NCBI GenBank assembly: GCA_965204905.1
Contig: OZ242042.1
Span: 898,778-962,777, forward strand
Source: Dehalococcoidia bacterium
Lineage (GTDB): Bacteria; Chloroflexota; Dehalococcoidia; Lucifugimonadales; UBA3495
Length of the DNA stretch: 64,000 nt
Direction: 5' to 3'
Shown here: piece after piece, positions 35,289 to 55,838 of the stretch
How positions within the stretch are numbered: the first letter of the stretch is position 1
Layout: the number at the start of each line of letters is the position of its first letter
The notes under the pieces: generated by a model
Database searches by the model: none
The model's input: the letters and a program-made list of their open reading frames with translations, nothing else
Told to the model about the DNA's origin: nothing
Program-made: the position numbers and the translations under genes

Positions 35289-35311
35289 AGCGTCTCTTCC
35301 TCGTTGGAGTC

Positions 35312-37201: not shown

Positions 37202-37852
37202 GAGCGTTCGCGCTTCAATTGGTCCACTGACTTAGGACACGGACCGGACTGCAGTCGCCGGTGAATCGGACAACGGGAGTGCCTTGTTTCGTGGCTTCCC
37301 GTTCGTCACCGAGCATGGTGGCCGCGACCGTTTTGACGCCGCGTCGCGAGCACGAATCATTGAGCCTGGGGCGTCTCGAGAACGCCTCGGGCTTATCCGG
37401 CGAAGCGGCTTGAAGCAAGCCCAACGCGGTGGCGTCTTGTTCCACGCTGGACCGGGACGGTGATGCCCAGCCAGTTGCCGGCAATCTTGTTCCACTCCAT
37501 TCGCGTGTCCGTTGGGACTATCCCAACGTTCCGTCCTTGGGGCAGGAGCCTGACGGGCGGAGAACCGTGTAGCGGCGGTTTGGACGGCCGGCTATGATGT
37601 TCGCAAACAGACCGTCGAAACGCGATTGTGGATGCCAATGTTACATCGGGCTAAGGTTTCGGTAAAGTAGCGCGGCGTCGGCCCATGATTTCGGTACCCC
37701 GCGGAGTCGATACCAACCCGTTTGGCTACCCTGCAGCCACAGTCATCTGACAGCGGCACGATCATGGCGATTTACCAAGTTATCTCCAGTCAGGACGGTT
37801 GCGGAATTCGTCGGTATATTCGTCAATATCCGCCCCTGATCCCAAGGATTTG

Positions 37853-37868
37853 GAGTAACGAAATTTCC
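37853..37868 (+). repeat. Junction motif copy M1 (GAGTAACGAAATTTCC)
   Basis: One mismatch to the GAGTAGCGAAATTTCC consensus. It sits where the B gene is missing next to an orphan C repeat. Confidence 0.6.
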
Positions 37869-37917
37869 CCGGTGGCCACCAGGCGGTCTTCGTTGTCTCC
37901 TCCAGGTGGGGCTTGTG

Positions 37918-38005
37918 CTCAGACGGGCTCAGTTGGGCTGCATGGCCGTACCGGCCCGGGGCGGGTAGGATAAAGGGGTTTCAGGCGAAACGGTAGTGTC
38001 TGGGG
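37918..38005 (+). repeat. C-type structured repeat (orphan, B gene lost)
   Basis: CTCAGACGGGCTCAGTTGGG...GGGTAGGATAAAGG...GCGAAACGGTAGTGTCTGGGG. Confidence 0.7.
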
Positions 38006-38160
38006 TTGCGGAGGCGGGCTGTTTATCGGGGTGCCGGGTATTGGAACGGGCGGCTCGAGTGGGCCGCCCTATCGTGTGAGTGGGTTTGGTTGGTGTGATC
38101 TCGGGACGGGGACGGTGTTGGGTTCGGAGCCTTACGACACGGGTATCTTGGTGGCGTTGG

Positions 38161-38621
38161 TCATGCTTCCCCTGCCGGTGTCCTTGATGGCTCGACCGGG
38201 TATATGTAGCCGGTGCCGTCCATGGTGGCGTTTTCGGCGTGGGTGATCAAGGTGGCGATTATGGTGGTGCTGGGGCGAATGCGACACCGGCACGATTGGA
38301 TCTTTGTTGGTCCTGTTCGTTGCTGTGGGCGAGGACGTACGTTGAGCTGACGGTGCCGGGCAGACCCTCGGGGTCGTGGACGTGGTGTACGCTGTTGTAC
38401 TGATGCCTTCGCGCCAACGGGATTGGTCAACCAGCGGTTAGGTCGCTGGTTGGGGTGAACCCTGCGCGCGGAATATGGTCGGTATAGCCGGCGTAGTCGG
38501 GACGGTCGTGGATGCTGACCCTGCTCAGTCCCAGGTGTTGGTGCAGGCGCCAATGCCGTTCGTGTCGACGTCGCTCCAGTTGAATCTTGCCTTGGCCGAC
38601 AGTCGGGAGGTGGGCGGGCAA
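38161..38621 (-). pseudogene. Degraded Fn3-type gene (paralog of 47482-47931)
   Basis: About 460 nt alignable by eye with 47482-47931. The coding frame switches between copies, and the ending NATMDGTGYIYPVEP resembles the Fn3 tail TTYIYRVEA of 50722-51576. Confidence 0.4.
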
Positions 38622-38638
38622 TATGAGTGGCTTGGGCT

Positions 38639-38728
38639 GCGCTCAGGCGGGCCCGCTTTGGTTTTGTGCTCGTTGGGCACGGGAAGACGCCGAGTAAGCC
38701 GCGGCGCCAAACGGTGGCGTCTGGGCGC
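38639..38728 (+). repeat. E-type structured repeat
   Basis: GCGCTCAGGCGGGCCCGCTTTGG...GCCAAACGGTGGCGTCTGGGCGC. Confidence 0.7.
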
Positions 38729-39061
38729 GTGCTGACTGGCCCGGTTGGACGGGACTGGGCGTTCGACGCCGCCTTGGGTCGTGTAAATGTCGGGGCGGCG
38801 GTTGCGTCAGGCTGGGCCGTCCGTTTTGCGGGCGGTAGAAGTCGTCATGCTGGGCGAGCGTGTGGTTGTGGCGTCGTGCTTGGTTGTGGGGTCGACTTTG
38901 ACCGGGGCGCGGACGTGGAAACGGCTGCCCCATTGATAGGAGCGGCCGGCGTCGCGGTGATCGGTGCCGTGTTGATTGTGCCGGTTGCGGATGGCGAAGC
39001 GTGACGGCCCGGCGTCATCGGATCGCGAGCCGGGCGTTCTCGGCTTGCTGGTGGCGGAGCG

Positions 39062-39144
39062 TTCAGGCGGGCTGGTTTGGCCTGCTGGGTCCGTGGTGGC
39101 CCATGCAGCGTATGAGCGGTTGAGGCCAAACGGGGGAGTCTGGG
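39062..39144 (+). repeat. C-type structured repeat (diverged)
   Basis: TTCAGGCGGGCTGGTTTGG...GCCAAACGGGGGAGTCTGGG. Confidence 0.55.
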
Positions 39145-39510
39145 TTAGCTATGGCGCCTTCGTTCGCGTCAGACGAGACTGAGACATGGGGGATTGTTCC
39201 GGAGCAATTGGATGCCCTGGTTGGCTTGGGCGTGCCGCGGATTAGCCCGAATCCACCGAAGGGATGCGGTGGGGCTGGTCAGACGGGGTATGAAAGATCA
39301 GTGGAAGGGCCGGCAGGGGTTTGATCCCGATGGATTGGTATAAGTGCCGAGTGTGTCAGGGGAGCGATGGGGGGTTTTTGGCGGGTCGCGGTGCCGGTGG
39401 CAGGCGAGATCAGCATGCCGATTACATCAGGAGACACGCGGGGACTAGCCTGGTGCAGATTTGCGAGGCAGTTGGACAGTCTGGCAGTCGGGTGAGACGC
39501 TGTTGGGCGA

Positions 39511-39860
39511 TCAGGAGGGTAGAGGCAGGGCGCGCAATCGGGCCAGAGCGCTGCTGAACTGGTTCTGCCAGGGCTAGCCTTGGGGCAGATGCAAAGTGAG
39601 GCGGCGGGCCGAGCGAGTGATGCGTCCGGCCAGGGAGAAGAAACGTCGTCGGGGGGTCTTGGTGGTTGCCACCGGCTCACCCAGCCCGATGCGCGTCCTC
39701 CAGCGTGCCAAGTTGTGCGCGATGCCCCCGTTTCGAGTATGGGGCAGGCTCTGTACGGCCAGCCAAGCGGCGTTGGCGGTAAAGCGTCCCGAGGGTTCGA
39801 AGCTGTTCGGGCAATGTTGCAGGCCCGGTTCCGGGGATGTTCGAGTCTGAGTAGCGAAAC
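39511..39860 (-). pseudogene. IS1380-family transposase, C-terminal part only
   Basis: GRFTANAAWLAV..AHNLARW..GLGEPVATTKTPRRRFFSLAGRITRSARRLTLHLPQG*PWQNQF. An in-frame TAG at 39574-39576 replaces Trp. The N-terminal part is deleted up to motif M2. Confidence 0.65.
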
Positions 39861-40012
39861 GGCCTATCTTGTTTGCCAGGTGGATTGAAAGTCTTTTCGA
39901 TTGGCGGTATTGTAGATCCACGTGAACCCATCAGGGTCCTCCTCGATATCAGAGGGCACAAGGAGCCTGGTGACTTGAACCCCGGGGCGTTGGTTTAGCC
40001 GACGCCCCGTAC
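39849..40012 (+). other. Conserved ~165-nt unit X1 (starts with motif M2, ends in a hairpin)
   Basis: Aligns by eye with 54854-55020. Hairpin GGGGCGTTGG-tttag-CCGACGCCCC at 39984-40008. Confidence 0.55.
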
Positions 40013-40045
40013 CTATGGGCTAATCCTGCGCCGCCGGGGTAGTAG

Positions 40046-40225
<180 letters not shown>

Positions 40226-40272
40226 AATGCGGTAACGTAACGAATATGACCCTTCGCCAGGTATTAGCCCGA

Positions 40273-41901
40273 TCAAGATTGGACGCCGATGATCTTGTCC
40301 CAGTCGGTTGACTGCTGGTAGGCGTAGGCGGCCCTCATGAGGAGCGGGTCGTCGAAGTAGCGGCCGACCAGCTGCATGCTGACTGGGAGACCAGCTGACG
40401 ACTTGCCCACGGGAAGGGCGAGGGCTGGATGCCCGGTGTAGTTGAAGGGCAGAGTGTTGTGAGAGACGCTCGAGTTCACCGTCGCCAGGTTCTCCTCCAC
40501 GGCCTCCAGGTAGCTACCCGGAGTTTGGTTCTTGGGCGCCGTCATGATGCATGTGGGCATCACGAGCACGTCGAGGTTAGCAAGTACGGCGTCATAGGCT
40601 TTGATGTAGGTGGGACGCACATTCTGGGCCTTGGCGTACACCCGGCCGTGGTAGTTGCGCCGGCTCAACTCGGCGGCGATGAGCGACAGCTTGCTGCGTG
40701 GCGCAAGCACGTCGGCCTGAGAGGCCCACAGCTTGTTAATGGCGGCGATGACGGAGGCGGGGTAGTAGGTCCGGGCGAAGGCGCCGAAGAACCCAGTTTT
40801 AAAAATGGCGAGGGCGCCTTCGCCCGTGAGCGCGGCCTGGGCCGCGCGGATGGTGTGGTGCTCCGGGACGGACACCTGGGATACGTCGGCACCTGCCTCT
40901 GCGAGGACGTCGACCGCCGCCATCACCAGGTCGCGCACATCGGCCTCGGCATCGTCGAAGCCCTCCTCGAGCACCCCGATGCGCAGCCCGGACACACCGT
41001 CGGCCAGCCGGCCGAGCAGGTCAATGCTGGTGGGGACGTTTCGTGTCTGGCGGGGATCGTAAGGGTCGTAACCCGCCGTGGCCTGGAGGGTAGCCGCTGC
41101 ATCCTCCACGGTACGGGTCAACGGACCCGTGTAGTCGATGCTCTGGTCCGAGCCGAAGCCGATACCGAAATGCGACAGCAATCCGAAGGTGGGCTTGTGT
41201 CCGACGATGCCGGAGAAAGCCGCCGGGATACGGATGGAGCCGCCCTGGTCGCCGCCGAAGGAGATGTCCACATCCCCGGCGGCCACGGCCGCGGCGGAGC
41301 CCGAGGACGAACCGCCGGTCACGTGATGGTGGTCGTGGGGATTGAGGGGACGGCCGTAGTCGCCGATGGCGCCGCCGGTGCCGAAGCCTCCACTCAGGCC
41401 GTTCATGACGTTCTTGCCGATGATCGTGCCCCCCTCCTTCAGCACCCGGGTGACGACAGTTGCGTCGAAGTCGGGGATGAAGCCTTCGAGGGCGAAGGAG
41501 CCGAAGCTCATGGGTATGCCTGCCACGGCGATGTGGTCCTTGTAACTGACTGTCTTGCCGGCAAGCAGACCTTCGGCCGCCCCTTCGATTCGGCATTTCC
41601 ACATCCAGGCGTTGAGTGGGTCTTCTTCCGCGCTCGGCCGGTACCCGGGCTCGCGGGCGGTAGAGACCATCGGAGGTTTGGGCTCCTCCAACCGGGCCTG
41701 CACGAAGGTGTCCAACTGTCCCAGCTGTTCCACCAGGTACTTCTGGTACGTAACGGCCTCATCGGGACTCAGGTGAATCCCCAACTCCTTGGCCACGGCC
41801 ACCACTTCATCGACGTCAGGTGCTGCGTACATGAGGCTCTTCTCCTCTGACTGTAGACTTCCTGGATCGGCGGGATTTGAATCGAGATTTTCTATTTCCA
41901 C
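40273..41901 (-). CDS. Amidase-signature family enzyme (GatA-like amidase)
   Basis: GGSSSGSAAAVAAG signature and 542 aa from a GTG start. An alternative ATG lies at 41832. Confidence 0.9.
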   Translation of the reverse strand: MEIENLDSNPADPGSLQSEEKSLMYAAPDVDEVVAVAKELGIHLSPDEAVTYQKYLVEQLGQLDTFVQARLEEPKPPMVSTAREPGYRPSAEEDPLNAWMWKCRIEGAAEGLLAGKTVSYKDHIAVAGIPMSFGSFALEGFIPDFDATVVTRVLKEGGTIIGKNVMNGLSGGFGTGGAIGDYGRPLNPHDHHHVTGGSSSGSAAAVAAGDVDISFGGDQGGSIRIPAAFSGIVGHKPTFGLLSHFGIGFGSDQSIDYTGPLTRTVEDAAATLQATAGYDPYDPRQTRNVPTSIDLLGRLADGVSGLRIGVLEEGFDDAEADVRDLVMAAVDVLAEAGADVSQVSVPEHHTIRAAQAALTGEGALAIFKTGFFGAFARTYYPASVIAAINKLWASQADVLAPRSKLSLIAAELSRRNYHGRVYAKAQNVRPTYIKAYDAVLANLDVLVMPTCIMTAPKNQTPGSYLEAVEENLATVNSSVSHNTLPFNYTGHPALALPVGKSSAGLPVSMQLVGRYFDDPLLMRAAYAYQQSTDWDKIIGVQS

Positions 41902-42047
41902 CGGTCCCGGCCTTATCTGATGAAACGAGGGGAGAGTACGCCCGCCCCTGGAAGCCTGTCAACAATCATCCCCCCGCCTTCAGGTTCGATTTCACTCTTC
42001 CCCAGCTTATGCGAGCATTATTCATGGTCATACAGAACCACGGTAAG

Positions 42048-42380
42048 CCACGGCGCGGCACCGTCCGATGGAGTAGCCGTGGGTCGGCCTGTCTCGAGTC
42101 TATGGGGCGGTGCGTTGGGGTCGCGCTATGGGCGGCTGTCATCAAAAACTTGGCCGCCCCGTTGGTCAGGGCGGCCGGTGTCGCGGTTGGTCCGCGACGG
42201 GTCCATTGTGTCAGTTGTGGGCTCAGGTCCGCTACGGCTTGGTGTCATCAGATTGCCGCTCTGATGCCGCTGTCTTCGCTATCGAGGGACGCGCGCCCAG
42301 ACGGGCTGTGCTGGCTTGTCGGGTCTGCCGTGTCCCATCGTTGGGTAACCGCGTTTTGGCCGAAATGGGAGTGTGTGGGG
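42048..42380 (-). promoter_or_regulatory. Family A leader copy (UCR-A4) with no Cas4-like gene, about 150 nt upstream of the amidase; includes a C-type repeat at 42296-42380
   Basis: Aligns with UCR-A1/A3 over its whole length and even retains the CCAC (GTG start) remnant at 42048. Confidence 0.6.
42141..42176 (-). terminator. Intrinsic terminator in UCR-A4
   Basis: Same hairpin and U5 tract as UCR-A3. Confidence 0.55.
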
Positions 42381-42571
42381 TCGTCGTGTCACGTCGGAGG
42401 GTTGCCTGCCGGGTAGCAATAGGTGCGGCTCATAACTGGCCGCCCTTGGGTGTCAATCAGGGAGATTTCGTTACTCCGATCCCAGATCGTTCTCGTAAGG
42501 GACTGTCCAGCAATCTGACAGGTTTCGTAACCGGCCGGGCGGTTTCTCAGGAACACGCTCTGGTTGCATGC

Positions 42572-42943
42572 TCACTGGCCAGTCTCGTCGCTGATCACCT
42601 GGCGCAGTTGGACGATGCCTTGTGTCGTTGCCCGCCGTGCGGTCCTGAGTTCTGTTGGGCTCAGGTTGGCTTGGTAGAAGTGGGAATGCAGTCTTTCGGC
42701 GGCTGCCCAGTCCGAAACCCACCGTTCTGAACCCTGCAGGTCGCGCAGGTTGGTTGCAGTGTTGCGGTACGTTCCGTGGCTCAATGCCGGCCATCCTCTG
42801 AGTTCTGACACGGCCAGCGATAGTTGGGCATAGGCCCCCCACAGTAGTTCGGCGGCAATCATGGTGTTGCCGCCGGGGTTGAATTCTTGGTTGGAGCGTT
42901 CCATGAACTCCATGCTGGCGTCGAGCCGCTGCTGGGTGTTCAT
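42572..42943 (-). CDS. Hypothetical helical protein, PaREP1/HEPN-like pattern
   Basis: AAELLWGAYAQLSLAVSELRGWPALSH. 4-nt overlap with the upstream gene. Confidence 0.4.
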   Translation of the reverse strand: MNTQQRLDASMEFMERSNQEFNPGGNTMIAAELLWGAYAQLSLAVSELRGWPALSHGTYRNTATNLRDLQGSERWVSDWAAAERLHSHFYQANLSPTELRTARRATTQGIVQLRQVISDETGQ

Positions 42944-43632
42944 GCGGTTGCCCGCCTCTCGGCGTTCAGGTGGTTCGCCAGCTGGATGGCTCGCCTGGCG
43001 AAATTCCTGGCGTCTTCGTCGGAGCCGTTTTCGCTGTCGTATCCCATGCTGAACTTTACCAAGTCGGGCTGGGCCATGGCGGCGCTGAACGCGCTGGTCA
43101 GGTTATGGCCTAACTCTGATGAGTCGGCTAAGGCTTGGTGAACATCCCAGGTGATTTCTGGGTTCCGCCCAGTTGCCAGTAGTTCGACAGCTTCGTGGAC
43201 TCCGTCTTCGTCGTGGGACCAACCGTTTCGGGCGGCGATGGCGGCTATGGAACATATCACGGCGCTGGCCAGGCTTTCCGTGGCTTGCTGGTGTTGCATA
43301 TCCAGAAAATACAGGTCGGCTCGACTGAAGTAGTGAGTGGCTCGCTCGGTGGCGACTTCGTCTATGGTGTCGCTGAACTTATCTGCGACTGGAGCGTAGT
43401 CACGTTGGCTGTGCTGGTGCATTTGGGGGTGTATGGCGCCCTTCGTTGCTACGGCCGCCATGTGGGCGGCGTTGAGGGCGTCGGTGATCGGACGGCGGCT
43501 CTTGCTCACATCAACCCTTGCCAGCAGGTTATTCCGCAGTCTGTCGGCTTCGGCGGCGTTGACGGTGCCGACTTCCTTCTCGTAGGCGGCGATGGCGACG
43601 CGTTCCGCCAGGTCCAAGATGGTTTCATTCAT
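42940..43632 (-). CDS. Hypothetical helical protein, second PaREP1/HEPN-like pattern
   Basis: ATESLASAVICSIAAIAARNGWSHDEDGVH. Confidence 0.4.
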   Translation of the reverse strand: MNETILDLAERVAIAAYEKEVGTVNAAEADRLRNNLLARVDVSKSRRPITDALNAAHMAAVATKGAIHPQMHQHSQRDYAPVADKFSDTIDEVATERATHYFSRADLYFLDMQHQQATESLASAVICSIAAIAARNGWSHDEDGVHEAVELLATGRNPEITWDVHQALADSSELGHNLTSAFSAAMAQPDLVKFSMGYDSENGSDEDARNFARRAIQLANHLNAERRATA

Positions 43633-44103
43633 GCTGGTCTGCTCCCGTATGATGCGGGCCGCGTCGGTTTGGCAAGCCTCGAGTTTTGGCGACGCCCTTG
43701 ACCAACTGGAGCCGGCTGGTCAGTTCTTTTCGGGGGCTTGGTGGACATCGCGGTGGGCAAGTTCGGCGCGGGCTTGAACTCGTAGCTGACGGCAGTTTGT
43801 AACTAGAGTAACCTTTTTGCAACGGTTTGGTCAGTCTATATTCCCTACAATGGCCACGCCGGCGGGAAGTAACGCATCCCGCCGGCTGGACGGATGGAAT
43901 GAGGTTGTCATCCGCCCCGTCCAGAGGGCCGGGTCCGGCAAGGAACCGGCACTTGAAATTTGAAAGTCATCTGGCTCCGTGCGTTCCGCATGGTTCGGAC
44001 TCGTCCCACACCGCGTTTACCGGGTTCCGATGCGCCACAGCGCCAGGCGCACCAAACCGGCAAACGACTGACCGCATTCCTTATCGGCGAAAATCGACAG
44101 GCC

Positions 44104-44523
44104 CTACGGCGATCGCCGGGGCGGTCGTCCTTGGTCTTCAAGGTCCTGGCACTGGCGGCAGGTGTCGGCGAGGGTGCCGTCGGGGAGTATGGTCTTCTCG
44201 TTGCCGCAGTCGCAGGTTCGCTCCAGGATCTGGAGAGCGAGGTCGAACTCCCGGGTGCGGTTGTCGGCGGCGGCGCAGTGTTCGCGCTTGAGTTTGTCGT
44301 ACTTCAGGGCGAACCGGGCGTAGGCGGTTTGACGCTTGTTGGCCTTGATGTCGGAGCGGCCTTTGGAGACCCACTTGCCGAGGGTGGTGGGGGACAGGGC
44401 GACGCCGTACTCGCTGACCTGTCTGATGACGTCGTGGTAGGTGCCGTCGGTATCGGGGAGGGCGCGCAGGACGGCGGCGATGTTCGGAGCGGTGAATCGT
44501 GCGGTCTTGTTATCGTTGGCCAT
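44104..44523 (-). CDS. Small HTH + zinc-ribbon protein (family B, copy B2)
   Basis: 139 aa. TLGKWVSKGRSDIKANKRQTAYARFA and CDCGNEK..CRQC. Confidence 0.7.
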   Translation of the reverse strand: MANDNKTARFTAPNIAAVLRALPDTDGTYHDVIRQVSEYGVALSPTTLGKWVSKGRSDIKANKRQTAYARFALKYDKLKREHCAAADNRTREFDLALQILERTCDCGNEKTILPDGTLADTCRQCQDLEDQGRPPRRSP

Positions 44524-44570
44524 GGTGTCCTCCTGGCAGTCTTCGTTCTCTCCTCCAGGTGGGACTTGTG

Positions 44571-44656
44571 CTCAGCCGGGCTGGTTTGGCCTATTTGGCC
44601 GTACGGGCCCGTGGGGTAGGATAACGGTGTTTGGGGCGAAATGGTAGCGTCTCGGG
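44571..44656 (+). repeat. C-type structured repeat, 5' of B2
   Basis: CTCAGCCGGGCTGGTTTGG...GGGTAGGATAACGG...GCGAAATGGTAGCGTCTCGGG. Confidence 0.7.
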
Positions 44657-44666
44657 TTGCTTACCA

Positions 44667-44682
44667 GGCGATTTCGCTACTC
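44667..44682 (-). repeat. Junction motif copy M3
   Basis: Plus strand GGCGATTTCGCTACTC, reverse complement GAGTAGCGAAATCGCC. Confidence 0.6.
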
Positions 44683-44777
44683 CAAAGTAGGCGTGCCTAC
44701 CGGGTCTTCGAGTGAGGTGCACATGGTACCTACCGACATACTTCAGAGGTTGCTCAGACGGCGGAAAATGAAAAGAG

Positions 44778-45041
44778 GTGAATGGCATGGATTTTGTGAT
44801 AGTCATGATCGTCGGAGCGATCTTGATCGCCACTACGGCCACAATCGCCAGTTCAATCGCAGGGCGGAAGGCGGCTGAGCGACAGCAGAGGTCGTTCAAT
44901 GATGACCGGATCGTAGCCGAGGTCAGAATCAGGGTTACCTCCACCGTCGCTTGGATCTGGGCCACAGTGTGCACCGCTTTGTTCGGGAGCGGGGCCGTTT
45001 TGTACAAGGTCGGCGACATCGTTGCCGCTCTGTGCAGATAG
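44778..45041 (+). CDS. Small hypothetical membrane protein
   Basis: 87 aa with two hydrophobic helices. It lies between the inverted motif copies M3 and M4. Confidence 0.35.
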   Translation: MNGMDFVIVMIVGAILIATTATIASSIAGRKAAERQQRSFNDDRIVAEVRIRVTSTVAWIWATVCTALFGSGAVLYKVGDIVAALCR

Positions 45042-45116
45042 CTCGCACTTGGACGACGGGTCGGGATGCCGTTACTTGGATTGCCCTACCACACCAATTG
45101 TGAGGGCATACCGGCA

Positions 45117-45132
45117 GAGTAGCGAAATTTCC
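45117..45132 (+). repeat. Junction motif copy M4 (GAGTAGCGAAATTTCC)
   Basis: Exact consensus. Confidence 0.6.
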
Positions 45133-45970
45133 TACCAACGACAGAATTGCATATCTCGAAAGCCACCTGATCTGCGGCGCAACGCGGCCACCATCGCGAC
45201 GTTTTGCGTCACCCAATAACCCGTGCTCCACGAGCACGCACAGCGACCGCGGAGCCCAATCGCCCGCGGTCTGCTGTTTGACCTCAACGACCTGACAAGA
45301 TGACTCGTCCAGCCAAAACCGGATGACACCCCATGCTATGCCACCGCACATTAGGCGAATACAACGTGCAGGACCGGACAGTGCTGCCCCATCAAGGTAA
45401 CAAGGAGCCCAAATCCTTTCCACCTTGATCGCCGAACGCTACCAGCGCAGGTCGTCGGGCATCACCCCCAACCCGGCCATTTCGGAATGAGAACGTATCT
45501 TCGCGAACCGCATCGAACCGCCCCCGCCATCGGCCGGGTGATGCACCACGTCGTTATCCTGGAATTCGACGTACGCGGATACCAGACTGATGCAGCCCAC
45601 CAGCCAGGCCAGTCAGAGTAGGTGAACCCGCAAAATTAATCGACGGAAATTCGACAAATCTAGTTGACGCGGGACAGTCCTTCGCAGCCGAAAAGTGCGC
45701 CTTCCCACCAGCCGGAACGACTACGCCCACGCGCTGAATGACAGTCGTGAGGGCACGACCAACGTGTACCTCAGTCGCCCAACACATCAACCGGTTGGAC
45801 GCGAGGTCACCATCGTGATATGTTCCCTGCCGGGGCCTCCTTTACACCTCGGAACAGCTCATGTCCCTGATGGAAGGTAAGCCGCCCTGGCGAGAGCCCA
45901 CACCCAGGCAACCAGGCTGCTAGCAAGAGTTGGCAGACGGCGTGGCTCTTCGCGGCCAAGAGGTGCTAGA

Positions 45971-46732
45971 ATGCGCGACCAATTCGTCGGCGACGTGGGA
46001 GACTTCGGCAAGTACGGCCTGATCCGTCGCCTCACCGGGCTCACCGACCCCGAAAAGTCCGACCCCGCCCTAACACTAGGCGTGGTCTGGTACTACCGCG
46101 ACGACGAGCTCGACCCGCACAGCAAACACGGCAAGTTCGTCCGATACCTGTGCCCAACCAGCAAGAACAAGAAAGAGTACAAGGCCTGCGACCACGACCT
46201 GTGGAAGGAGCTCGGCAAACTGGTAAAGCCGGGGCATCGACGCGTTCATCGCGTCATGCAATCTCCAATCCTCCCCGCCGGCACCAAATACTTCCCCAAC
46301 AGGTTGGACTTCGCCGACACCAAGCAAAACGAGAAACCTGAACAATTTCGCGCCCGTTGGCTCCAAGAAGCGGCCCAGAAGGTCAGCGGAACAGACATCG
46401 TGTACCTTGATCCTGACGATGGGCTGCTGCCGGCATCCGCGAAACTACACACGGCGAAAGGCTGCAAATACGCCGATAAAGGCGACTTGCAAACTTTCCG
46501 AGAGCGTGGTCAAAGCGTCGTACTCTACCAGACTCAACGCGGCAAAAGCATAAAAAATCGGATCGCAGACATCAGGAAACTCTATCCTGATGCCATCGCC
46601 ATGTGGTTTCACCGAGGCAACGCACGGCTCTTCTTCATCCTCCCGCAAACCAAACATCGAAAGACCATAACCGACCGCATCGACCGAATGCTCAAAACCG
46701 ACTGGAAAAATCACTTCACCAAGTGTCCCTGA
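45971..46732 (+). CDS. Hypothetical 253-aa protein
   Basis: Clean ORF. The N-terminal FVGDVGDFGKYGLIRRL and the later IVYLDPDDGL faintly recall the RlmJ-type AGNxADxLKH and DPxx motifs. No confident family call. Confidence 0.6.
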   Translation: MRDQFVGDVGDFGKYGLIRRLTGLTDPEKSDPALTLGVVWYYRDDELDPHSKHGKFVRYLCPTSKNKKEYKACDHDLWKELGKLVKPGHRRVHRVMQSPILPAGTKYFPNRLDFADTKQNEKPEQFRARWLQEAAQKVSGTDIVYLDPDDGLLPASAKLHTAKGCKYADKGDLQTFRERGQSVVLYQTQRGKSIKNRIADIRKLYPDAIAMWFHRGNARLFFILPQTKHRKTITDRIDRMLKTDWKNHFTKCP

Positions 46733-46849
46733 CCAACGCACGCTCCATCCCGACGTCCATCACCCTCTCAAAATCACGGGATTCACACACCCATCGGGGC
46801 GACAATCCGCCTGAGGCGGATGCACCCACGAAATCACTCACCAACACCA

Positions 46850-46865
46850 GAGTAGCGAAATTTTC
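46850..46865 (+). repeat. Junction motif copy M5 (GAGTAGCGAAATTTTC)
   Basis: One mismatch. 118 nt after the stop of the 253-aa gene. Confidence 0.6.
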
Positions 46866-47124
46866 TAGTTGCTTACGGCTGCTGGTTTGACCTTGAGGTG
46901 CTGCCGGTGCGCGGGCGACCGGGATGATAGTTGCTGGTATGGCGAGCGTGGACAGTGCCGATAGTCCTGACGGTATCCATCAGTTCCGTTGAATGACGCG
47001 TTTTCCTCAACTCGTGATGTGTTCGGATCGCGGTGAAGAGTCGGTGTGAGGCAGGATGGTGCTGGCCATGGCTTTGGCCGGTTTGCGAGTTGGGAATGGG
47101 CCGACAATGTGGGGGTTCCGGGTT

Positions 47125-47215
47125 GCGCTCAGGCTCTCCCGTTTGAGCATTCTCGGTGTTGGGCGGGGGGAATTCGGTGAGCCCGCCGCGGTGCCAAACG
47201 TTAACGCCTGGCGTC
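47125..47215 (+). repeat. E-type structured repeat (degenerate)
   Basis: GCGCTCAGGCTCTCCCGTTTGAG...GTGCCAAACGTTAACGCCTGGCG. Confidence 0.5.
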
Positions 47216-47283
47216 GCGGTGGCGCGGCGCTGCGGCCGGCTTCCGGGTGTGAAAATGGCTGGGCAATGGGAGCTGCTTGGGCT

Positions 47284-47370
47284 GCGCTCAGGCGGGCCAT
47301 TTTCGGTTCTGTGGGTTTTGGGCAGAAGAATTACGCCGAGCAAGCCGGGTCGCCAAACGGTGGCATCTGG
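47284..47370 (+). repeat. E-type structured repeat
   Basis: GCGCTCAGGCGGGCCATTTTCGG...CGCCAAACGGTGGCATCTGG. Confidence 0.65.
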
Positions 47371-47472
47371 TGACGCCGTGGCGGGTCGCTAGGCTGGCTG
47401 CCGGGTAATGAAAGGGTCTTTGCTGAGGCGTCCTGCTGGTGGGTAAGGTTCTGCCATGTGGGTTCGCACGGA

Positions 47473-47488
47473 GCAGTTTCGCTACGGG
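47473..47488 (-). repeat. Junction motif copy M6
   Basis: Plus strand GCAGTTTCGCTACGGG, reverse complement CCCGTAGCGAAACTGC. Confidence 0.5.
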
Positions 47489-47931
47489 TTGGTGCCGTAT
47501 GGGACGTTGATCTCGGCGTCGTTTGAAACGCTTGCCTTGCTGTTGTCCTCGATGGCTTCGACTGGGTAGATGCAGTGGGTGACGTTCATGATGGTGTTTT
47601 CGGCGTAGGTGATCGAGGGGCCGATTATGGTGGTGTCGGGTTCTCTCCGACACCGGCACGATTGGATCTTTTCTGGTCCTGGTCGTTGCTGTGGATGAGG
47701 CGTTACGTCGCGCTGACGTTCTCGGCTAAATCCCCGGGGTCGTGGACGTGGTGTACGTTGTTGTGCTGGTACGTCCACACGAAATGGTTTGCTCAACCAA
47801 GCGTTTTTGTCGCTGGTTGGGGTGAACCCTGCGCACGGTATATGGTCGGTATCGCCGGCGCAATCGGGTCGGTCGTGGATGCTGACCTTGCTCGGTCCCA
47901 GGCTGTTGATGCCGGCGCCAATGCCGTTCAT
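47482..47931 (-). pseudogene. Degraded Fn3-type gene (paralog of 38161-38621)
   Basis: The 149-aa ORF is open, but third-position GC is only coding-like in its last third. The middle is better in another frame, which ends in a stop (..VHHVHDPGDLAENVSAT*). Confidence 0.4.
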
Positions 47932-48007
47932 GTCTACGTGGCTCCGGTTGAACGTTGGTTTGGCCGCCGGGCGGCAAAATGGCCGGGCAATCTGAGCGGC
48001 TTGGGCT

Positions 48008-48098
48008 GCGCTCAGGCTTTCCTGTTTCGGTTCTGTGGATGTTGAGCAGGAAATTGACGCCGAGCAAGCCGCGGCGCCAAACGGTGGCGTCTGGGCGC
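48008..48098 (+). repeat. E-type structured repeat
   Basis: GCGCTCAGGCTTTCCTGTTTCGG...GCCAAACGGTGGCGTCTGGGCGC. Confidence 0.7.
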
Positions 48099-48418
48099 GT
48101 TCTGGCTGGCCCGGTTAAACGGGACCGGGAGGTCGACACCGTCTTGGGTCGCGTTGGTGGCCCGGGCGACGGTCGCGTCAGGCTGGGCCGTCCGTTTTAC
48201 GGTTGGCAGAAGCCGGCATGCTGGGCGAGAGCGTGGCGGTGACGTCGTGCTTGGTGGTGGTAGTGCCGACTTTGCCCGGGGCGCGGATGTGGAAAAGGCC
48301 GCCGCGTTGGTAGGAGCGGCCGGCGATGTGCTGATTGTGCTGTTCGGGGATGGCGACGAGTTGCGGCCCGATGTTATCGGATTGAGGGCCCGGTGTCGTC
48401 GGCTTGATGGTGGCGGAC

Positions 48419-48503
48419 GCGCTCAGGCGGGCTGGTTTGGGTTGTTGGGTCCGTATGGCCCTTGGTTAGGGTAACGGCGTTTCATACGAAATGGCGGCGT
48501 CTG
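48419..48503 (+). repeat. C-type structured repeat
   Basis: GCGCTCAGGCGGGCTGGTTTGGG...TTAGGGTAACGGCGTTT...AAATGGCGGCGTCTGG. Confidence 0.7.
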
Positions 48504-48890
48504 GCGGTGTTGTGGGTGGTCGTTAGGACAAATGGGGTGCAGCAAAAAGGGCGGCTGGTGTGGACTGCACTTGGACGTCAACTGGTCGCTGTTGGTTATG
48601 CTGGCATGTGTGTGCAGTGGGTTGCTCGGCTGTCAGTCGGTGCCCCGTCAAGTTGCTGAGCGACTCCTGCGCCCGAGGATCTGCTGCGGTGGCGGATGGC
48701 TTTTTCCTGTGGACCCTGCTAACCCATCAAAACGGATCCGAGTGTGACTGCCGTCGCATTGCCCGCCCTTGTTGCGGGCCGAACCGATTCCAGTACGGCA
48801 TCGCGTGTTGGGCACGGCTTTGCGGCAAATGACCCTACGTGATAGGTTACTTCTCGGTAACGGCAGTTTTCACCCGATGCGGGGTATCGA

Positions 48891-49256
48891 GTGGCGTCCG
48901 AAATTGTTGACCTCAAAAATGTACCGGTTTACCTTATCGTGGCTTTTGCCCTTGTCATGGTCGTGGTGCCTGCTGCAGCGGCGCTTGTTCCGACAATTGC
49001 GAGCGCCATGCGTCGCCAGCGGTCAGCCAGATTTCGGACTGAACTGAGGTGGTACCTGCGGGCTGTTATATGGTGTGCAGTCGCGGCGTTAGTGATTGCG
49101 GTTGCGGCCGCGTTTATCACAATCACTGTGTCAGTTTGGACGGACCTAGAGAAAACGTCGAAACCAGCGGATCAGGGAGGGGGCGAGCATCCGCAGCATC
49201 TTATAGGAGACGAAGAGGAAGGCGCCAATCCAGGCGACCGTGGCGACGGTGAATAG
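48891..49256 (+). CDS. Small hypothetical membrane protein
   Basis: 121 aa with two long hydrophobic helices. Its 3' end overlaps a convergent ORF, so only one of the two may be real. Confidence 0.3.
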   Translation: MASEIVDLKNVPVYLIVAFALVMVVVPAAAALVPTIASAMRRQRSARFRTELRWYLRAVIWCAVAALVIAVAAAFITITVSVWTDLEKTSKPADQGGGEHPQHLIGDEEEGANPGDRGDGE

Positions 49257-49475
49257 TACTGCGCCGGTAGCCACCGTAAAAAGTGAATTTTCGTGGTCGC
49301 CCCAAATAACCAGAATGGTTCCAGTGACGGTACAGGCGGCAGCGGCTATCAGAAGGTAATTTAACCAATCCATGCCGGTGGCTTTTGAGCCATCCGCACG
49401 GTTGTGCCCATTCTGCTGTTCCGTCGTGCTGGACGCCTCGATCGCGTCCTCGTTGTTCACATGCGGATTTGCCAT
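49146..49475 (-). CDS. Small hypothetical membrane protein
   Basis: 109 aa with three hydrophobic helices (LLIAAAACTVTGTILVIW, FTVATGAVLFTVATVAWIGAFLFV). Confidence 0.35.
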   Translation of the reverse strand: MANPHVNNEDAIEASSTTEQQNGHNRADGSKATGMDWLNYLLIAAAACTVTGTILVIWGDHENSLFTVATGAVLFTVATVAWIGAFLFVSYKMLRMLAPSLIRWFRRFL

Positions 49476-50106
49476 CGGTGAGCACCTGTGGCCGCCATAT
49501 TATCGCAACCTCAATTAACTGACAAACGTGAGTGTGTTCTGCGTAGGGTGTTTCTCGGGTCGGGCGCTGGTCTACCGGGAGATGGAAATCGCTGGTAAGT
49601 TGCCGCCCCAACGACCAACAATGCCCTAAATCCAAACGGCATCACTGCCGCCGGTACGGTTGAGTTTACGGAATCTGGTATATCTGATTTTCCGTTTCCT
49701 GATAGCCGGCTACGCCTCCCAAAAGATGGGCGCGCCATGGGGGTATTATTTTTGTCCATGAGAAGCCTGCCTGCACACGGCTCTCCGTGCAAAGCCCGGA
49801 GCGTATCGGTGTCCTGACACAGGGACTGGTCAACCGCGGAATCGTCGTTTCCGATCATGCCCGTGGCGCTTGGTGCCTGACCCGTAGGATTCTACCGATT
49901 GGTTTCCTACTGGCGACCGTTCCAGTCAATGAGGACTAGCCGCAACGGCTGATCGTCTTCATGCGGTCGGACGCCGACAAATCCGTGCCGCGAAGAAGCA
50001 TGGGATTTCCTGACGATTGGCTGGCCTCTCCATATGGCGTAGGCACTCGCCGCCGGGAGGGAAAGTGAACGCGGAGGTTGATGCCCTGGTTGTCGCTGCC
50101 ACTCGG

Positions 50107-50469
50107 TCAAATTCTGGGTAGCGAAATTTCCTGCGTCATCTTCTCGTTGCCGCAGTCGCAGGTGCGCTCCAGGATCTGGAGGGCGAGGTCGAACCCGTGG
50201 GTGCGGTTGGCGTCGGCTGCGCAGTGCTCGCGCTTGAGTTGATCGTATTTCTGGGCGAACCGGGCGTAAGCGGTTTTACGCCTGTTGGCCTTGAGGTCGG
50301 TGCGGCCTTTGGAGACCCACTTGCCGAGGGTGGTGGGGAACAGGGTGACGCCGTACTCGCGGACCTGTCTGACGACGTCGTTGTAGGTGCCGTCGGTATC
50401 GGGGAGGGCGCGCAGGACGGCGGCGATGTTCGGAGCGGTGAATTGTGCGGTGTTGTTGAAGTTGGTCAT
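50107..50469 (-). pseudogene. Family B copy B3, truncated inside the zinc ribbon
   Basis: Near-identical to B1 for 107 aa. Homology stops right after CDCGNEK, exactly at motif copy M7, so the second Cys pair is lost. Confidence 0.65.
50116..50131 (+). repeat. Junction motif copy M7 (GGGTAGCGAAATTTCC)
   Basis: One mismatch. It marks the B3 truncation point. Confidence 0.6.
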
Positions 50470-50518
50470 GGTGTCCTCCTGGTGGCTCTCGGTTTCTCCT
50501 CCAGGTGTGGGACTTGTG

Positions 50519-50606
50519 CTTGGACGGGCTCAGTTTGGGCTGATTGCCCGTACCGGCCCGTCAGGTAGGATAACGATGTCTCGGGCGAGACGGTAGTGCT
50601 TGGGGT
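50519..50606 (+). repeat. C-type structured repeat, 5' of B3
   Basis: Almost identical to 33039-33126 in its first half. Confidence 0.7.
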
Positions 50607-50721
50607 TGCGGTGGCAGGCTATTTGTCGAGGTGCCGGGTAGTGGAAAGGGCGGCCCATTCGAGCTGCCCTTGCGTTTGGTGGTTTTCCCGGCGTAGTCGG
50701 ACCGGGGGTATTTGGCTTGCC

Positions 50722-51576
50722 TTACGGGATGGCAATCTCGGCGGCGTTGGTCATGTCGCTCTCGCCGTTGGCCTTGAGGGCTTCCACCCGGTAGATGTAG
50801 GTGGTGCCGCTCGCGGCGGTGGAGTCCGTGTAGGACGTGTCGGACAGGTCCACTGGGAACCTGGTCCAGTCGATGGGCCGGTCTCCCGCCACCCGGCGCT
50901 TGACCTGTTGGGTGGTGTAGTTGGGGTTGGTGTGTCCGGTCCACGTGAGGGACACGTTCCCGCCGCTGATGGTAGCGCTGAGTCCTGTAGGGGGCATCCT
51001 CTCGGGAGGGGGCGTTGGTGTCGGGTTAGGTGTGGGCGCTGGGTCGCTTGGCGGGTCCTGTGCTCCAGCCGTGGCGCTCACGTCTGCGGATCTGGTTCTG
51101 CCGGATTGGTTGATTGCGATGACCCGGTAGGTGTACGCCGTGTTGCCGGTCAGGTTAGTGACCGTTGCCTGTAGGTCTCCTGTCCATGTCACGCCGTAGG
51201 CTTCGTCTTTGCCGTCTTCTTGGAATGGGAGTTTGCGGAATCTCTTGGCCGTGCCGTCCCACTGCTGGACCTCGTAGCTGTCGGCCAGTCTTGCCGTGTC
51301 CCACTGGATCGTAACTCTTCCGCCGGATAGTCCGGTTGCGGTTGGCTGTGGCGTTGCGGGCTTGGTTTCGACCACTATTCTTGGTGCCCAGAGTGACACT
51401 TGGGAGGCTGATGTGGCCTGTACCGTCATGGCGTAGTAGCTTCCGAGGCACGTGTTCCTGACGGTGTGCCCCGTGTTCGAGGCGATTCCGCTACTCGGAT
51501 TTTCATTGGACAACAGCGGAAATGGGTCGCCGTGGTGACGGCTTTCGTCGGTAGACTGAGAAAGCCCCGCTGGCAC
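50722..51576 (-). CDS. Protein with two Fn3 domains joined by a Pro/Thr linker
   Basis: VTIQWDT..YTYRVIAINQSG and VSLTWTG..YIYRVEALKANG. The real start may be the ATG at 51429, because the upstream part covers motif M8. Confidence 0.65.
   Translation of the reverse strand: MPAGLSQSTDESRHHGDPFPLLSNENPSSGIASNTGHTVRNTCLGSYYAMTVQATSASQVSLWAPRIVVETKPATPQPTATGLSGGRVTIQWDTARLADSYEVQQWDGTAKRFRKLPFQEDGKDEAYGVTWTGDLQATVTNLTGNTAYTYRVIAINQSGRTRSADVSATAGAQDPPSDPAPTPNPTPTPPPERMPPTGLSATISGGNVSLTWTGHTNPNYTTQQVKRRVAGDRPIDWTRFPVDLSDTSYTDSTAASGTTYIYRVEALKANGESDMTNAAEIAIP
51481..51496 (-). repeat. Junction motif copy M8
   Basis: Plus strand GGCGATTCCGCTACTC, reverse complement GAGTAGCGGAATCGCC. Confidence 0.5.
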
Positions 51577-52014: not shown

Positions 52015-52149
52015 AGTTGCTCCTTTTGGGTCTCGTTAGAGGGTGCAATTGCAATCTAGAAAGCAGGCCGGAAAGCCCTGGTTGGGAAGAGTGATAGCGC
52101 CAGTGTTGGCGACCTGAGCCAAGCCAGTGCCAAGGTTGGTAGCAGGTGG

Positions 52150-53922
52150 TGATCCACGCCGAGATTCCCGCCAATTTCAGTGATGGTGACGACGCCGTGG
52201 GGGTTATCGCCAGGATCTCCGAACCACGCCGGTTTGGTTGGCCAGCAGGGTCAAGTTGGCCACTGTGGCGGCCAGGTACAACTGGCACTTGGTCTTGACC
52301 CGTCCGAAGTAGCGAGCCTGCCGGATGCCCAACTGCTCCAGTCGAGCCAGTCTATGCTCCGCCACCACCCGTAGCTGCCGGTACTGATCGTAGTCGGCGC
52401 TTTGCTGCAAGGCCCGCGCCGATTGCAGCAAGCCTTCCTGGGGGTGGATCAGCACCTGGCGTCCCTTCCTGCCCTTGGCCGCAAAGCACTGGGACCGCAA
52501 CAGGCAGCCCTGGCACACCGCACCGTCAAACCGGAAAGCTTGCAGCCGACGCACCGTCCCAGTAATGTCGGTGCGTTTCCCCGCCGGCACGATGGTGCGA
52601 GTGATCTGTCCTGCCGGACAGGTGCAGCTTCCCGCCGACAGGTCGATGCTGAAGTCTTCCTTGGGGAAACATTTCCGGTTGGGACGACCCGGCACTCGGG
52701 CCACCAGCCTGCGCCCAGCATCTGCGGAAACCTGACGGGTGCTGCCGTCGCCGTAGGCGGTGTCCCCCAAGGCCTCCACCACCGCCACATCGGCGCTGGC
52801 CTCGCTCTGTTCCACCAACTCCAGCGCCCCCAGATTATCGGGAGCGTTCCCCGGCAACACATCCACCGCGGTGATCAATTGGCTGTCGGTGTCCACCACC
52901 ACAGCGGCCTTGTGTCCGTCAAAACGCCGGCTCTTGCTCTTGTGGCCGTGGCGCATCTGTAGATCGTGTACCGACACCATCCGGTCCTTGCTCACACCAT
53001 CTTTCAGGCTCACCCCGCCGTCATCATCGCCACCGCTGTCGCGCTTCACGTCCTGGAGCAGTAATTGTCCCAGCAAATCCGCCGTGTCAACCATCGCCTG
53101 CCGCTCGGCGCTGTCGACGGGCACCCAGTCTTGGGTTTGCCGAGCCAACTCCAGCAACCGGTCGGCGTCGGCCACAATCTGTCCCAACAACCTCCGCCGC
53201 GCCCGACGGTTGGACCAGTCGATGACCGCTTCCCCCTTCACGCTACTGCCCACGTAGCGTTTGTAACCCTGGCCCTCCGCCCAGCGCCGCACCGGCACAC
53301 CGTCCACCGCCGCCAGCGCCCGCATCAGCTTCACGATGCCGTCGCCCAGAAGATTGTAAGTGTCCTTCACCGCACCGCGTCCCAGGACGTAGGTCGTGTC
53401 CATGGCCACCCGCATCCCACGCTTTCCCTTCAGGTAGCCGGCCTCCCGCGCGAGCCGCAGGCTCTGCTTGAATACCTCACGCACCTTGTCGTGCAAAATC
53501 AACTGCGCTCGGAACACCTGCAGCGTGCTCTTGGCAAAGGGCCGATCCTCGATCTCAATGCCCAACGCTACCTTCCACCGGATGTCGAAATCGGCTCTGG
53601 CCTTGGCCTCGGCGTCGCTCACCTTGTCGTGGGTCTGCAACAACAGCGCCGTGGCCAGCAGGCTCGGCGGCACGCTGACCCGCCCATTGTCCATGCAGTA
53701 CAACTCGGCGAAGTCGGCGTCGCGAAACAGCTGGCCCCGCAATGACGCCAGCAGCCGATAGAAGGTGTCTCGGCCCACCAGGTCCAGGTACAACTGGTCC
53801 GCCTCCCAAAGCCCCCTCTGGTCGGATCGCTCGCCCATCATGGTCTCTCTCACTTCGCTCCGCTATCTCAACTGGCCCGGAGTATAACTCCCTACTCCAT
53901 CAACCGGGGTTTCCGACCGCAT
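52150..53922 (-). mobile_element. IS1182/IS5-like insertion sequence (ends approximate)
   Basis: The right end is placed where homology with the truncated second copy (54355-54523) stops (GGGGTTTCCGRCCG). The left end is not resolved. Confidence 0.6.
52204..53853 (-). CDS. DDE transposase with DUF772-type N-terminus
   Basis: 549 aa. GRVSVPPSLLATALLLQTHDKVSDAEA..DIRWKVALG, and C-terminal GIRQARYFGRVKTKCQLYLAATVANL. Confidence 0.85.
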   Translation of the reverse strand: MRETMMGERSDQRGLWEADQLYLDLVGRDTFYRLLASLRGQLFRDADFAELYCMDNGRVSVPPSLLATALLLQTHDKVSDAEAKARADFDIRWKVALGIEIEDRPFAKSTLQVFRAQLILHDKVREVFKQSLRLAREAGYLKGKRGMRVAMDTTYVLGRGAVKDTYNLLGDGIVKLMRALAAVDGVPVRRWAEGQGYKRYVGSSVKGEAVIDWSNRRARRRLLGQIVADADRLLELARQTQDWVPVDSAERQAMVDTADLLGQLLLQDVKRDSGGDDDGGVSLKDGVSKDRMVSVHDLQMRHGHKSKSRRFDGHKAAVVVDTDSQLITAVDVLPGNAPDNLGALELVEQSEASADVAVVEALGDTAYGDGSTRQVSADAGRRLVARVPGRPNRKCFPKEDFSIDLSAGSCTCPAGQITRTIVPAGKRTDITGTVRRLQAFRFDGAVCQGCLLRSQCFAAKGRKGRQVLIHPQEGLLQSARALQQSADYDQYRQLRVVAEHRLARLEQLGIRQARYFGRVKTKCQLYLAATVANLTLLANQTGVVRRSWR

Positions 53923-53947
53923 CTCCAGTGGGTCGGCATAGTCGTAC

Positions 53948-54523: not shown

Positions 54524-54760
54524 TAGGGCGAAGAGGCGTCGCTGTAGGGTCTTGGAGGTCGCCACCGGCTCGCCCAGTCCCCAGATGGTGAGCCGGCGTG
54601 ACCGGCGAGAGCATATCGGCATCGACCAAAGGGCGGAGATCGTCGAAGGCAATGCAGATGCGGTCAGGCTGCTTGCGTAGTAGCATCCGATGGGTGCTCC
54701 TCGTTTCGGGCTGGTTTTGTGATTCAAAAACCATTATCCCCGAAGCCGGGAGCACTTTCT
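54524..54760 (-). pseudogene. IS1380-family transposase, internally deleted and interrupted
   Basis: N-terminal MLLRKQPDRICIAFDDLRPLVDADM is joined out of frame to GLGEPVATSKTLQRRLFAL (the same segment as in 39511-39860), then cut by the truncated IS. Confidence 0.55.
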
Positions 54761-54853
54761 TATCCCTTCAGCGCGCTGTCACACTTAATCTTTTCGGTGG
54801 ATTGGCGCTTAGGCACATCCCCGCGTATCGCGTTGTTTTCCTGCCCGGTTTTG

Positions 54854-55020
54854 GAGTGGCGAGATTTTCACGGCTTGAACGTTTGCGATTGAAGTGGAGA
54901 GGTGTTGGTGGTACGATCTTCTCACGTAAACCCACCGGTACCCTACTCGGCAATAGAGGGCGAAAGGGGCTGGTCACTTGAACCCCGGGGTGTTGGTCAG
55001 CCAACGCCCCGTACTTTTTG
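54854..55020 (+). other. Conserved ~165-nt unit X2 (degenerate motif, hairpin, T5 tract)
   Basis: GAGTGGCGAGATTTTC ... GGGGTGTTGG-tcag-CCAACGCCCC GTACTTTTTG. Homologous to X1. Confidence 0.55.
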
Positions 55021-55828: not shown

Positions 55829-55838
55829 GCTCAAGGGA

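Follow-up and report, generated by a model that had tools for sequence, protein, structure and literature searches.

Mobile insertion cassettes (MICs) consist of passenger genes enclosed by inverted repeats of the insertion sequence (IS) type and have no transposase gene (PMC4444841). The elements described here lie in a stretch of 64,000 nucleotides (the window; contig OZ242042.1, positions 898,778 to 962,777) from a 4.09-Mb metagenome-assembled chromosome of a Dehalococcoidia bacterium (Chloroflexota), and their tips carry a recurrent 16-nt motif. Like MIC231 of Bacillus cereus, the qnrS2 mic and miniature inverted-repeat transposable elements (MITEs), they hold a passenger between inverted repeats, are accompanied by duplications and are presumed to move in trans. 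They differ in having IS21-like, multipartite ends, in a cargo that ranges from 87 amino acids (aa) to a 7-kb defence operon, and in being nested in a Dehalococcoidia defence island. To our knowledge, the MICs in the literature stem from the IS231/IS4 family, and we know of no earlier description of IS21-like ends on passenger-only elements. The best reading is that the cargo elements are non-autonomous IS21-like transposons of the MIC/MITE type, mobilised in trans. They form a new family of a known kind, passenger-only elements with IS-type repeats, and not a new principle.

Other systems are similar in outline. The dif modules of Acinetobacter plasmids (pdif, acted on by XerC/D) share with the window elements short inverted sites, small mobile modules and the lack of a nearby recombinase. 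However, dif modules have 28-bp Xer sites of 11-6-11 layout and show no target duplications, whereas duplications and long asymmetric ends are found here. Integron cassettes are likewise mostly single-gene, promoter-poor units that accumulate in an array-like region. Their attC sites stand in direct orientation, fold into hairpins and are recombined by IntI without duplications, features that were not seen in the window elements. Repetitive extragenic palindromes (REPs) carry a GTAG head and, after it, a conserved palindrome able to form a hairpin; a tyrosine transposase gene (RAYT) is associated with them. A REP/RAYT assignment was rejected: the sole palindromic part, GAAATTTC, is not conserved among the copies, inverted repeats are absent, and no Y1 transposase occurs among the open reading frames (ORFs) tested.

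The 16-nt motif is a genuine feature and its abundance is not random. When up to three mismatches to GAGTAGCGAAATTTCC were allowed, 11 matches were found in the window, compared with a mean of 0.40 in 100 dinucleotide-preserving shuffles of the window; the largest count in the shuffles was 3, and none reached 11. The enrichment reported in the initial annotation thus holds in the window under a composition-aware null model. The true copies are all confined to 37.8–54.9 kb. The 10-mer GTAGCGAAAT is exact in four of them, as had been claimed, and the perfect 16-mer occurs only at 45117 (+). The copies listed previously at 37853 (+), 39849 (+), 44667 (-), 45117 (+), 46850 (+), 50116 (+) and 51481 (-), together with the degenerate copy at 54854 (+), were all recovered, and a good copy at 42461 (-), GAGTAACGAAATCTCC, had been overlooked. 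The degenerate copy proposed at 33375 (+) found no support, and the proposed copy at 47473 (-) belongs to a different sequence, discussed below.

The clearest example of an element bounded by the motif is complete, 2203 bp in length (44665–46867), and situated in the leader of B2, one of the family B genes of the island. Its left inverted repeat tip (44667–44682) reads GAGTAGCGAAATCGCC on the minus strand, and its right tip occupies 46850–46865 (+). The left end consists of CA followed by GGCGATTTCGCTACTC and the right end of GAGTAGCGAAATTTTC followed by TA, and these two bases on each side separate the tips from a perfect (9/9) direct repeat, GTTGCTTAC, at 44656–44664 and 46868–46876 (both +). 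Deleting 44665–46876 in silico joins the B2 leader to a sequence that can be aligned with the upstream portion of its paralogues. Because the deletion restores the leader, 44665–46867 is a filled site with a reconstructable empty form. The element contains a 253-aa ORF without a family match (45971–46732, +), and its left part is a sub-element of ~470 bp (44666–45137; 466 bp from tip to tip) that consists of a tip, an 87-aa membrane ORF (44778–45041, +) and a second tip (45117–45132, +) internal to the larger element. Sequencing runs X4/X5, from another study and under another organism label, contain a contig that matches 44666–45137 at ~95% (25 differences) and diverges at both tips, where CCAGCATCA is present on both sides as a 9-bp duplication. 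A partial copy of the sub-element in run X8 has a further right-hand context and diverges after 45135, so that the sub-element is known from two other contexts in unrelated metagenomes.

A second element carries the anti-phage system Dsr1. In the window it is represented by a cargo segment on the minus strand (33695–37871) whose far end is truncated. The Dsr1 genes and their 650-nt upstream region are 91.7% identical over 4178 bp to positions 11550–15726 of locus L004, compared with 60% identity between the B proteins of the two genomes. The homology stops at the motif (37871). In L004 the element is complete (11553–18650, 7.1 kb) with both ends, and is flanked by CGTTCACG (8/8). The flanks of the element differ between the window and L004. 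This defence system, 92% identical between otherwise distant genomes, thus travels on one of the motif-bounded elements, which are therefore a vehicle by which defence and other single genes pass within and between genomes. In both genomes the Dsr1-type SIR2 protein is encoded by two adjacent ORFs, one of 629 aa with the SIR2 domain (35312–37201 in the window) and one of 529 aa corresponding to the C-terminal part (33699–35288). Since the same split is found in both, it looks native rather than a frameshift error. The ORF pair as a whole spans 33699–37201 (minus strand) in the window and 12220–15722 in L004. A near-perfect 49-nt palindrome lies ~140 nt downstream of the Dsr1 stop codon (33511–33559), and could be a strong hairpin resembling a terminator or else a further repeat.

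Comparison of 19 Dehalococcoidia loci (17 with B homologues from other metagenome-assembled genomes, in addition to L001 and L002; L001 is the same place as L003) shows that the arrangement recurs. A 12-mer core of the motif at no more than one mismatch has 15 copies in 7 of these loci. Close pairs recur with a minus copy on the left and a plus copy on the right, and their interiors are mutually unrelated. Seven such (-,+) pairs were found in six genomes or contigs. In addition to the window pair 44667/45117 they include L004 677/1632 (971 bp, with a 213-aa ORF), L007 6877/7487 (626 bp), L016 16307/16792 (501 bp, with a PaREP1 protein) and L019 7813/9684 (1887 bp, with a histidine kinase). Close pairs that each enclose a single ORF, unrelated to the others, were thus seen in five genomes. 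Duplications flank the pairs in L007 (CTAGGTTG), L079 (AAATGACT(GA)) and L016 (CAAACG), and the duplication lengths observed are 9, 9, 8, 8–10 and 6–7 bp. When the 14-nt left and right flanks of eight pairs were compared, the longest words common to both were 5, 5, 8, 6, 2, 10, 9 and 7 nt; in random pairs of window flanks, words of at least 7 occur in 0.7% of trials and words of at least 9 in 0.04%. Target duplications of 7–10 bp are a signature of DDE-type transposition and therefore argue against conservative recombination or inversion. Pairs of the opposite sense, (+,-), were considered as the element and rejected, as the duplications and the independent copies fit (-,+) pairs instead. Inverted terminal repeats, target duplications and the same element at different sites, as expected of MICs and MITEs, are all found. 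The motif delimits discrete segments that occur in different contexts, in agreement with the suggestion of the initial annotation that it marks a cassette boundary. PaREP1-family ORFs are present as cargo in or beside motif-bounded elements both in the window (42572–42943, minus strand) and in L016 (16411–16770).

The ends extend well beyond the motif. Twenty-five copies anchored at the motif show TC (or TA) directly outside, a weakly conserved gaatcg directly inside, and a second conserved block 40 nt further inward from the tip. Twelve ends align without gaps over ~78 nt, with the layout (t)tACGAAAATCGTC, 6 nt, GATCGAT.TCCG, ~14 nt, gaatcg GAGTAGCGAAAT..CC TC. The inner block, (t)tACGAAAATCGTC at positions -56 to -41, is a direct repeat of the tip tAGCGAAATCGCC in these 12 complete ends. 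Read from outside inwards, the tip with its two additional bases is 5'-(G/T)A GGNRATTTCGCTACTC, and the termini set by the duplications are GA...TC, TA...TA and CA...TA. A weak inverted arm (GGATTTG / GAATCG) is also present upstream of many copies. The 16-nt motif is thus probably the outermost part of a multipartite terminal inverted repeat of ~78 nt. An inner repeat of the tip together with a middle block is the architecture of ends that bear several transposase-binding sites.

A profile built from the 12 ends and searched with nhmmer identifies four full ends in the window. That at 37792–37871 (+, tip 37853–37868, E=2e-16), with the inner repeat GGAATTCGTC..., is the end of the Dsr1-carrying element; that at 39791–39865 (+, tip 39849–39864, E=5e-9) adjoins an IS1380 transposase remnant; the other two lie on the minus strand at 42459–42536 (tip 42461–42476, E=2e-11) and 51478–51549 (tip 51481–51496, E=3.5e-12). 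The copies at 44667, 45117, 46850 and 50116 are found as tips only, the last of these (50094–50133, +, tip 50116–50131) at the truncation point of the gene B3. The degenerate tip GAGTGGCGAGATTTTC (54854–54869, +) is in register with 39849 relative to a common right flank. Further full ends were detected in L017, L065 and L023. The earlier statement that flanks are unrelated between copies is therefore only partly correct, as four copies share the ~78-nt end, and 39849 and 54854 share a duplicated junction.

The cargo in the window comprises the 87-aa membrane protein, the 253-aa protein and the two-gene Dsr1 SIR2 system, and includes no transposase. Their movement would accordingly depend on an enzyme that acts in trans and whose gene lies elsewhere. 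Such an enzyme would bind and pair both ends, cleave at the tips and attach these to staggered target cuts 8–9 bp apart; cuts so placed would give rise to the flanking duplications. Repeated insertion of elements into and beside one another, followed by deletions, could then produce the truncations and junctions of the island.

The identity of the enzyme is suggested by elements of the IS21 family. In this family each end carries two direct repeats, both of which are required by IstA (PMC10122671); the 3' end is CA, and many members, IS5376 among them, give 5-bp duplications (PMC10122671, PMC11208146). A metagenome pattern scan with AGGNNATTTCGCTACTC returned at least 120 contigs. Among those listed, the majority resemble isolated chance matches. 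Some 33 represent a single IS5-like family that has the 17-mer 45–60 nt inside its end, and six are IS21-family elements (L043, L054, L061, L100, L134 and L136) encoding IstA (~510 aa) and IstB (~257 aa). In all six, conservation at the istA-proximal end finishes with the 17 bases GAGTAGCGAAATCACCT, whose tip points outwards; the layout of this end is ...GGGGCCAAATCAGAGTATCGAAA GGGGCCAATTCA GAGTAGCGAAATCACCT and then the flank, with tandem ~23-nt repeats inside. L100 carries both ends, the second of which finishes in a diverged copy, CAGTAGCGAACTCAAGG, and its duplication may be 7 bp (GCCGCGG). Its IstA is 93% identical to a protein named 'IS21 family transposase' at NCBI. For IstA of the other elements, identity to the L100 protein is only 52–57%, indicating that the tip is conserved across a diverged IS21 subgroup. 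The closer relatives L142 and L144 have variant tips, and an IS21 element of Lichenicola shares the GGGCCA.AATTC units while its tip is not shared. The cargo elements thus have in common with the IS21 elements the outer 17 bases of the istA-proximal end, an end built of direct repeats of a transposase-binding sequence (PMC10122671), and flanking target duplications. From this common 17-mer it is about an even call, or a somewhat better one, that the enzyme would be an IstA/IstB pair of the IS21 type. A conserved third ORF downstream of istB, within the autonomous IS, is present in L134 (~3170–3600) and L061 (reverse, ~2890–3380) as a passenger gene. In the high-copy IS5-like family, from soil metagenomes (L022, L030, L032, L036, L038 and ~28 others), the transposase starts MRKPYP...DAEW, and GAGTAGCGAAATACCCT lies 8 nt upstream of the start codon, 45–60 nt inside the end.

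Several observations weigh against this derivation, and some of them favour an alternative in which the transposons are as described but their family is unrelated to IS21, the 17-mer being due to convergence or chance and the movement to another DDE transposase, or to an unrecognised one, encoded elsewhere in the genome. The duplications of 8–9 bp (6–10 at the loosest) and the termini GA..TC or TA..TA do not fit canonical IS21 elements, which have TG..CA termini and, in many members, 5-bp duplications. The range given for IS21 duplications in ISfinder is 4–8 bp. In the Dehalococcoidia ends the inner repeats (ACGAAAATCGTC) are set 40 nt from the tip, and their sequence is unlike that of the adjacent ~23-nt GGGCCAATTCA units seen in IS21 elements; in the tip-only copies of the window no inner repeat is recognisable with the end profile. 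No element with these ends and a transposase of its own was found in any Dehalococcoidia locus examined. The IS21 copy from the L019 genome, the only Dehalococcoidia IS21 with readable ends, has unrelated ends in which the motif was not found, and the IS21 of L005/L141 was rejected as an autonomous partner because its ends are different. The presence of the 17-mer in the IS5-like family makes a chance match in a high-copy element possible in principle, and in L134 and L061 the motif may be subterminal, as their similarity runs 11 nt past it. Duplications were not seen around the window copy of the 466-bp sub-element, nor around the L019 pair. Nevertheless, six IS21 elements carry the motif at the very end with the tip outwards, just as the cargo elements do, the second end of L100 bears the diverged copy CAGTAGCGAAC, and both types of end contain direct repeats of the tip further in. 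An origin unrelated to IS21 is unlikely, though a real contender. No motif-bounded element, whether of the window or of the Dehalococcoidia loci, contains istA or istB, an absence that is expected of a non-autonomous derivative and so compatible with derivation from IS21. On the chromosome contig of the window, no IstB match was found among the best 120 matches.

The initial annotation had proposed site-specific recombination or inversion at the motif, which would then be the core site of a conservative tyrosine or serine recombinase (a pdif-like site or an invertase site) at which modules are exchanged or inverted. Inverted pairs do flank modules, the weak inverted arm upstream of many copies could belong to such a site, and one pair in L017 (14182–19002) bounds a 4.8-kb segment in which an HTH_3 protein and a recombinase fragment are encoded alongside a 581-aa large serine recombinase and around which no target duplication was seen; the segment may be cargo or a second mobility system, and the pair counts against the transposon reading. 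Serine recombinase homologues in L019 and L009, however, are not beside motif ends, duplications of 7–10 bp accompany at least five independent elements, and the ends are 78 nt in length and asymmetric, with direct inner repeats. In two short-read runs that include the window genome at ~50–90x (X1 and X2), the assembled contigs, in which rare variants are dropped, are colinear across 44472–48095 with its four sites, and inversion or excision joints at the motif are absent from these deep assemblies. With duplications present and joints absent, this proposal is not sustained, and a conservative recombinase site is highly improbable. Run X3 was considered as a strain lacking 37–42.7 kb and rejected on account of a patchy library, ~2x depth and a SMART adapter at the contig end. 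That contig end, at window position 42647, is the SMART oligonucleotide CAGTGGTATCAACGCA; X3 may derive from cDNA or from amplified low input, and either origin would account for its patchy ~2x cover. No RNA runs were identified. A role as an operator or promoter element for a regulator such as protein B, also proposed earlier, would account for the partly palindromic core (GAAATTTC), for the forward copies upstream of B2, the NYN gene and the amidase leader, and for the presence of GCGAAACGGTAGCG within the leader. However, distances to genes range from 110 to 850 nt with variable orientation, and 37853 and 50116 face the 3' ends of genes. It is GAGTAGCGAAAT and not the palindrome that is conserved, no sigma-70-like promoter was found around the copies, the model of protein B has no fold match, and the motif is also present at IS21 ends and on metagenome contigs that lack both A and B genes. 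An operator function can thus be given almost no credence.

The island is mosaic in composition, with multiple copies of gene families A and B alongside the split Dsr1 SIR2 gene. An amidase is also present, as are three IS1182-like transposases and remnants of IS1380. Family A is a Cas4-like PD-(D/E)XK nuclease (6922–7725, 12131–12781 and 30625–31275), and family B is a 139-aa helical protein with an HC...CDCGN...C..C motif (32538–32990, 44104–44523, 50107–50469 and ~13700–14107). Only 37 homologues of family B were found, with no matches in Pfam, NCBIfam or PADLOC, and no significant fold match was obtained for its structural model (mean pLDDT 80). The two families occur together in most of the 17 Dehalococcoidia loci. 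In a further alternative, machinery not recognised as a transposase moves the elements, which would then constitute a new transposon superfamily that shuttles defence genes. One candidate is the multi-copy pair of the family A nuclease and the Cys-rich protein B, found with the elements in most Dehalococcoidia islands examined. This alternative is very unlikely. The transposases present were also considered, and the motif was rejected as their terminal repeat: the IS1182-like ends (CTAGAAAGCAGGCCGGAAAGCC...) and the IS1380-like end (...GGTGGATTGGGGCTTA) are unrelated to it. The initial annotation had reported no recombinase in the window, which is accurate for a cognate enzyme. An IS5-like transposase inside the Dsr1 element of L004 was likewise rejected as an autonomous partner, as it has no recognisable repeats of its own.

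The motif coincides with breakpoints of homology, as had been noted before. Homology to the leader begins at 37871, two bases past the motif, where homology of the Dsr1 segment to L004 ends, and homology to B3 begins at 50139, eight bases past the motif. The copy at 37853 would be the end of the Dsr1 element abutting a leader whose B gene was lost, and that at 50116 an end abutting a B3 gene deprived of its 3' part. The copies at 39849 and 54854 belong to a larger duplicated junction, where they mark paralogous sites that precede an NYN-domain gene. They may be copies of one insertion junction, each with an IS1380 copy just inside the end; an IS1380 3' remnant is found at 39506–39790, and an IS1380-like element lacking ~1 kb of the transposase gene at ~54525–54829. 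Between the copies at 51481 and 54854, which may be the two ends of one segment, lie two later insertions: an IS1182-like IS at 52055–53946, 86.7% identical to L004 7968–9867, and a deletion derivative of IS1380. Nesting, adjacent deletions and one segmental duplication would account for the junction pattern. Some ends in the window have no partner there.

The cargo elements help to explain the mosaic, truncated island, and they provide a rule for annotation: a 16–18-nt tip (78 nt with the inner repeats) marks the ends of cargo-carrying, transposase-less transposons in large-genome Dehalococcoidia. If the link to IS21 is true, it extends the MIC/MITE concept to this family and offers a natural substrate for mapping which parts of the ends are needed.

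The leader into which the 2203-bp element is inserted is a repeated, C-rich, minus-strand sequence of ~180 nt that precedes B genes as well as unrelated ones. Copies in the window are located at 14114–14301, 32991–33168, 37872–38058, 42267–42433, 44524–44664 (continued at 46877–~46930), 48388–48556, 50471–50657 and 55678–55834, and in L001 at 9818–9999 and 12000–12151. The leader was found only in the window genome, L001 and L006. Within it is a small GTTTC...GAAAC hairpin, which covaries in one copy (GTCTC...GAGAC at 50469). A consensus structure was not predicted by RNAalifold, and long inverted repeats are absent, so the leader was rejected as a structured RNA or an attC-like site. Rfam and tRNA scans of the window were empty.

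Upstream of family A genes a different conserved sequence occurs. The core CCGTAGCG.AC, within (GA)CACCAAGCCGTAGCGGACC, is present in family A leaders at 7641, 7710, 31340, 42190, 42227 and 47477; at no more than one mismatch it has 13 matches, compared with 4.6 expected, and is a conserved element separate from the 16-nt motif. The copy of the motif proposed at 47473 (-) matches this core instead and is not detected by the end profile; its context, CACCAACCCGTAGCGAAACTG, resembles the core at 42227, CACCAAGCCGTAGCGGACCTG. Two further matches of the motif search, 12760 (-) and 31254 (-), have three mismatches each and occur at the 5' ends of two family A ORFs (12131–12781 and 30625–31275), in positions homologous to each other. 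They are one event, at chance level. Finally, a direct repeat of 1 kb (38120–39143 and 47486–48504, 78.7% identity) includes leader fragments.

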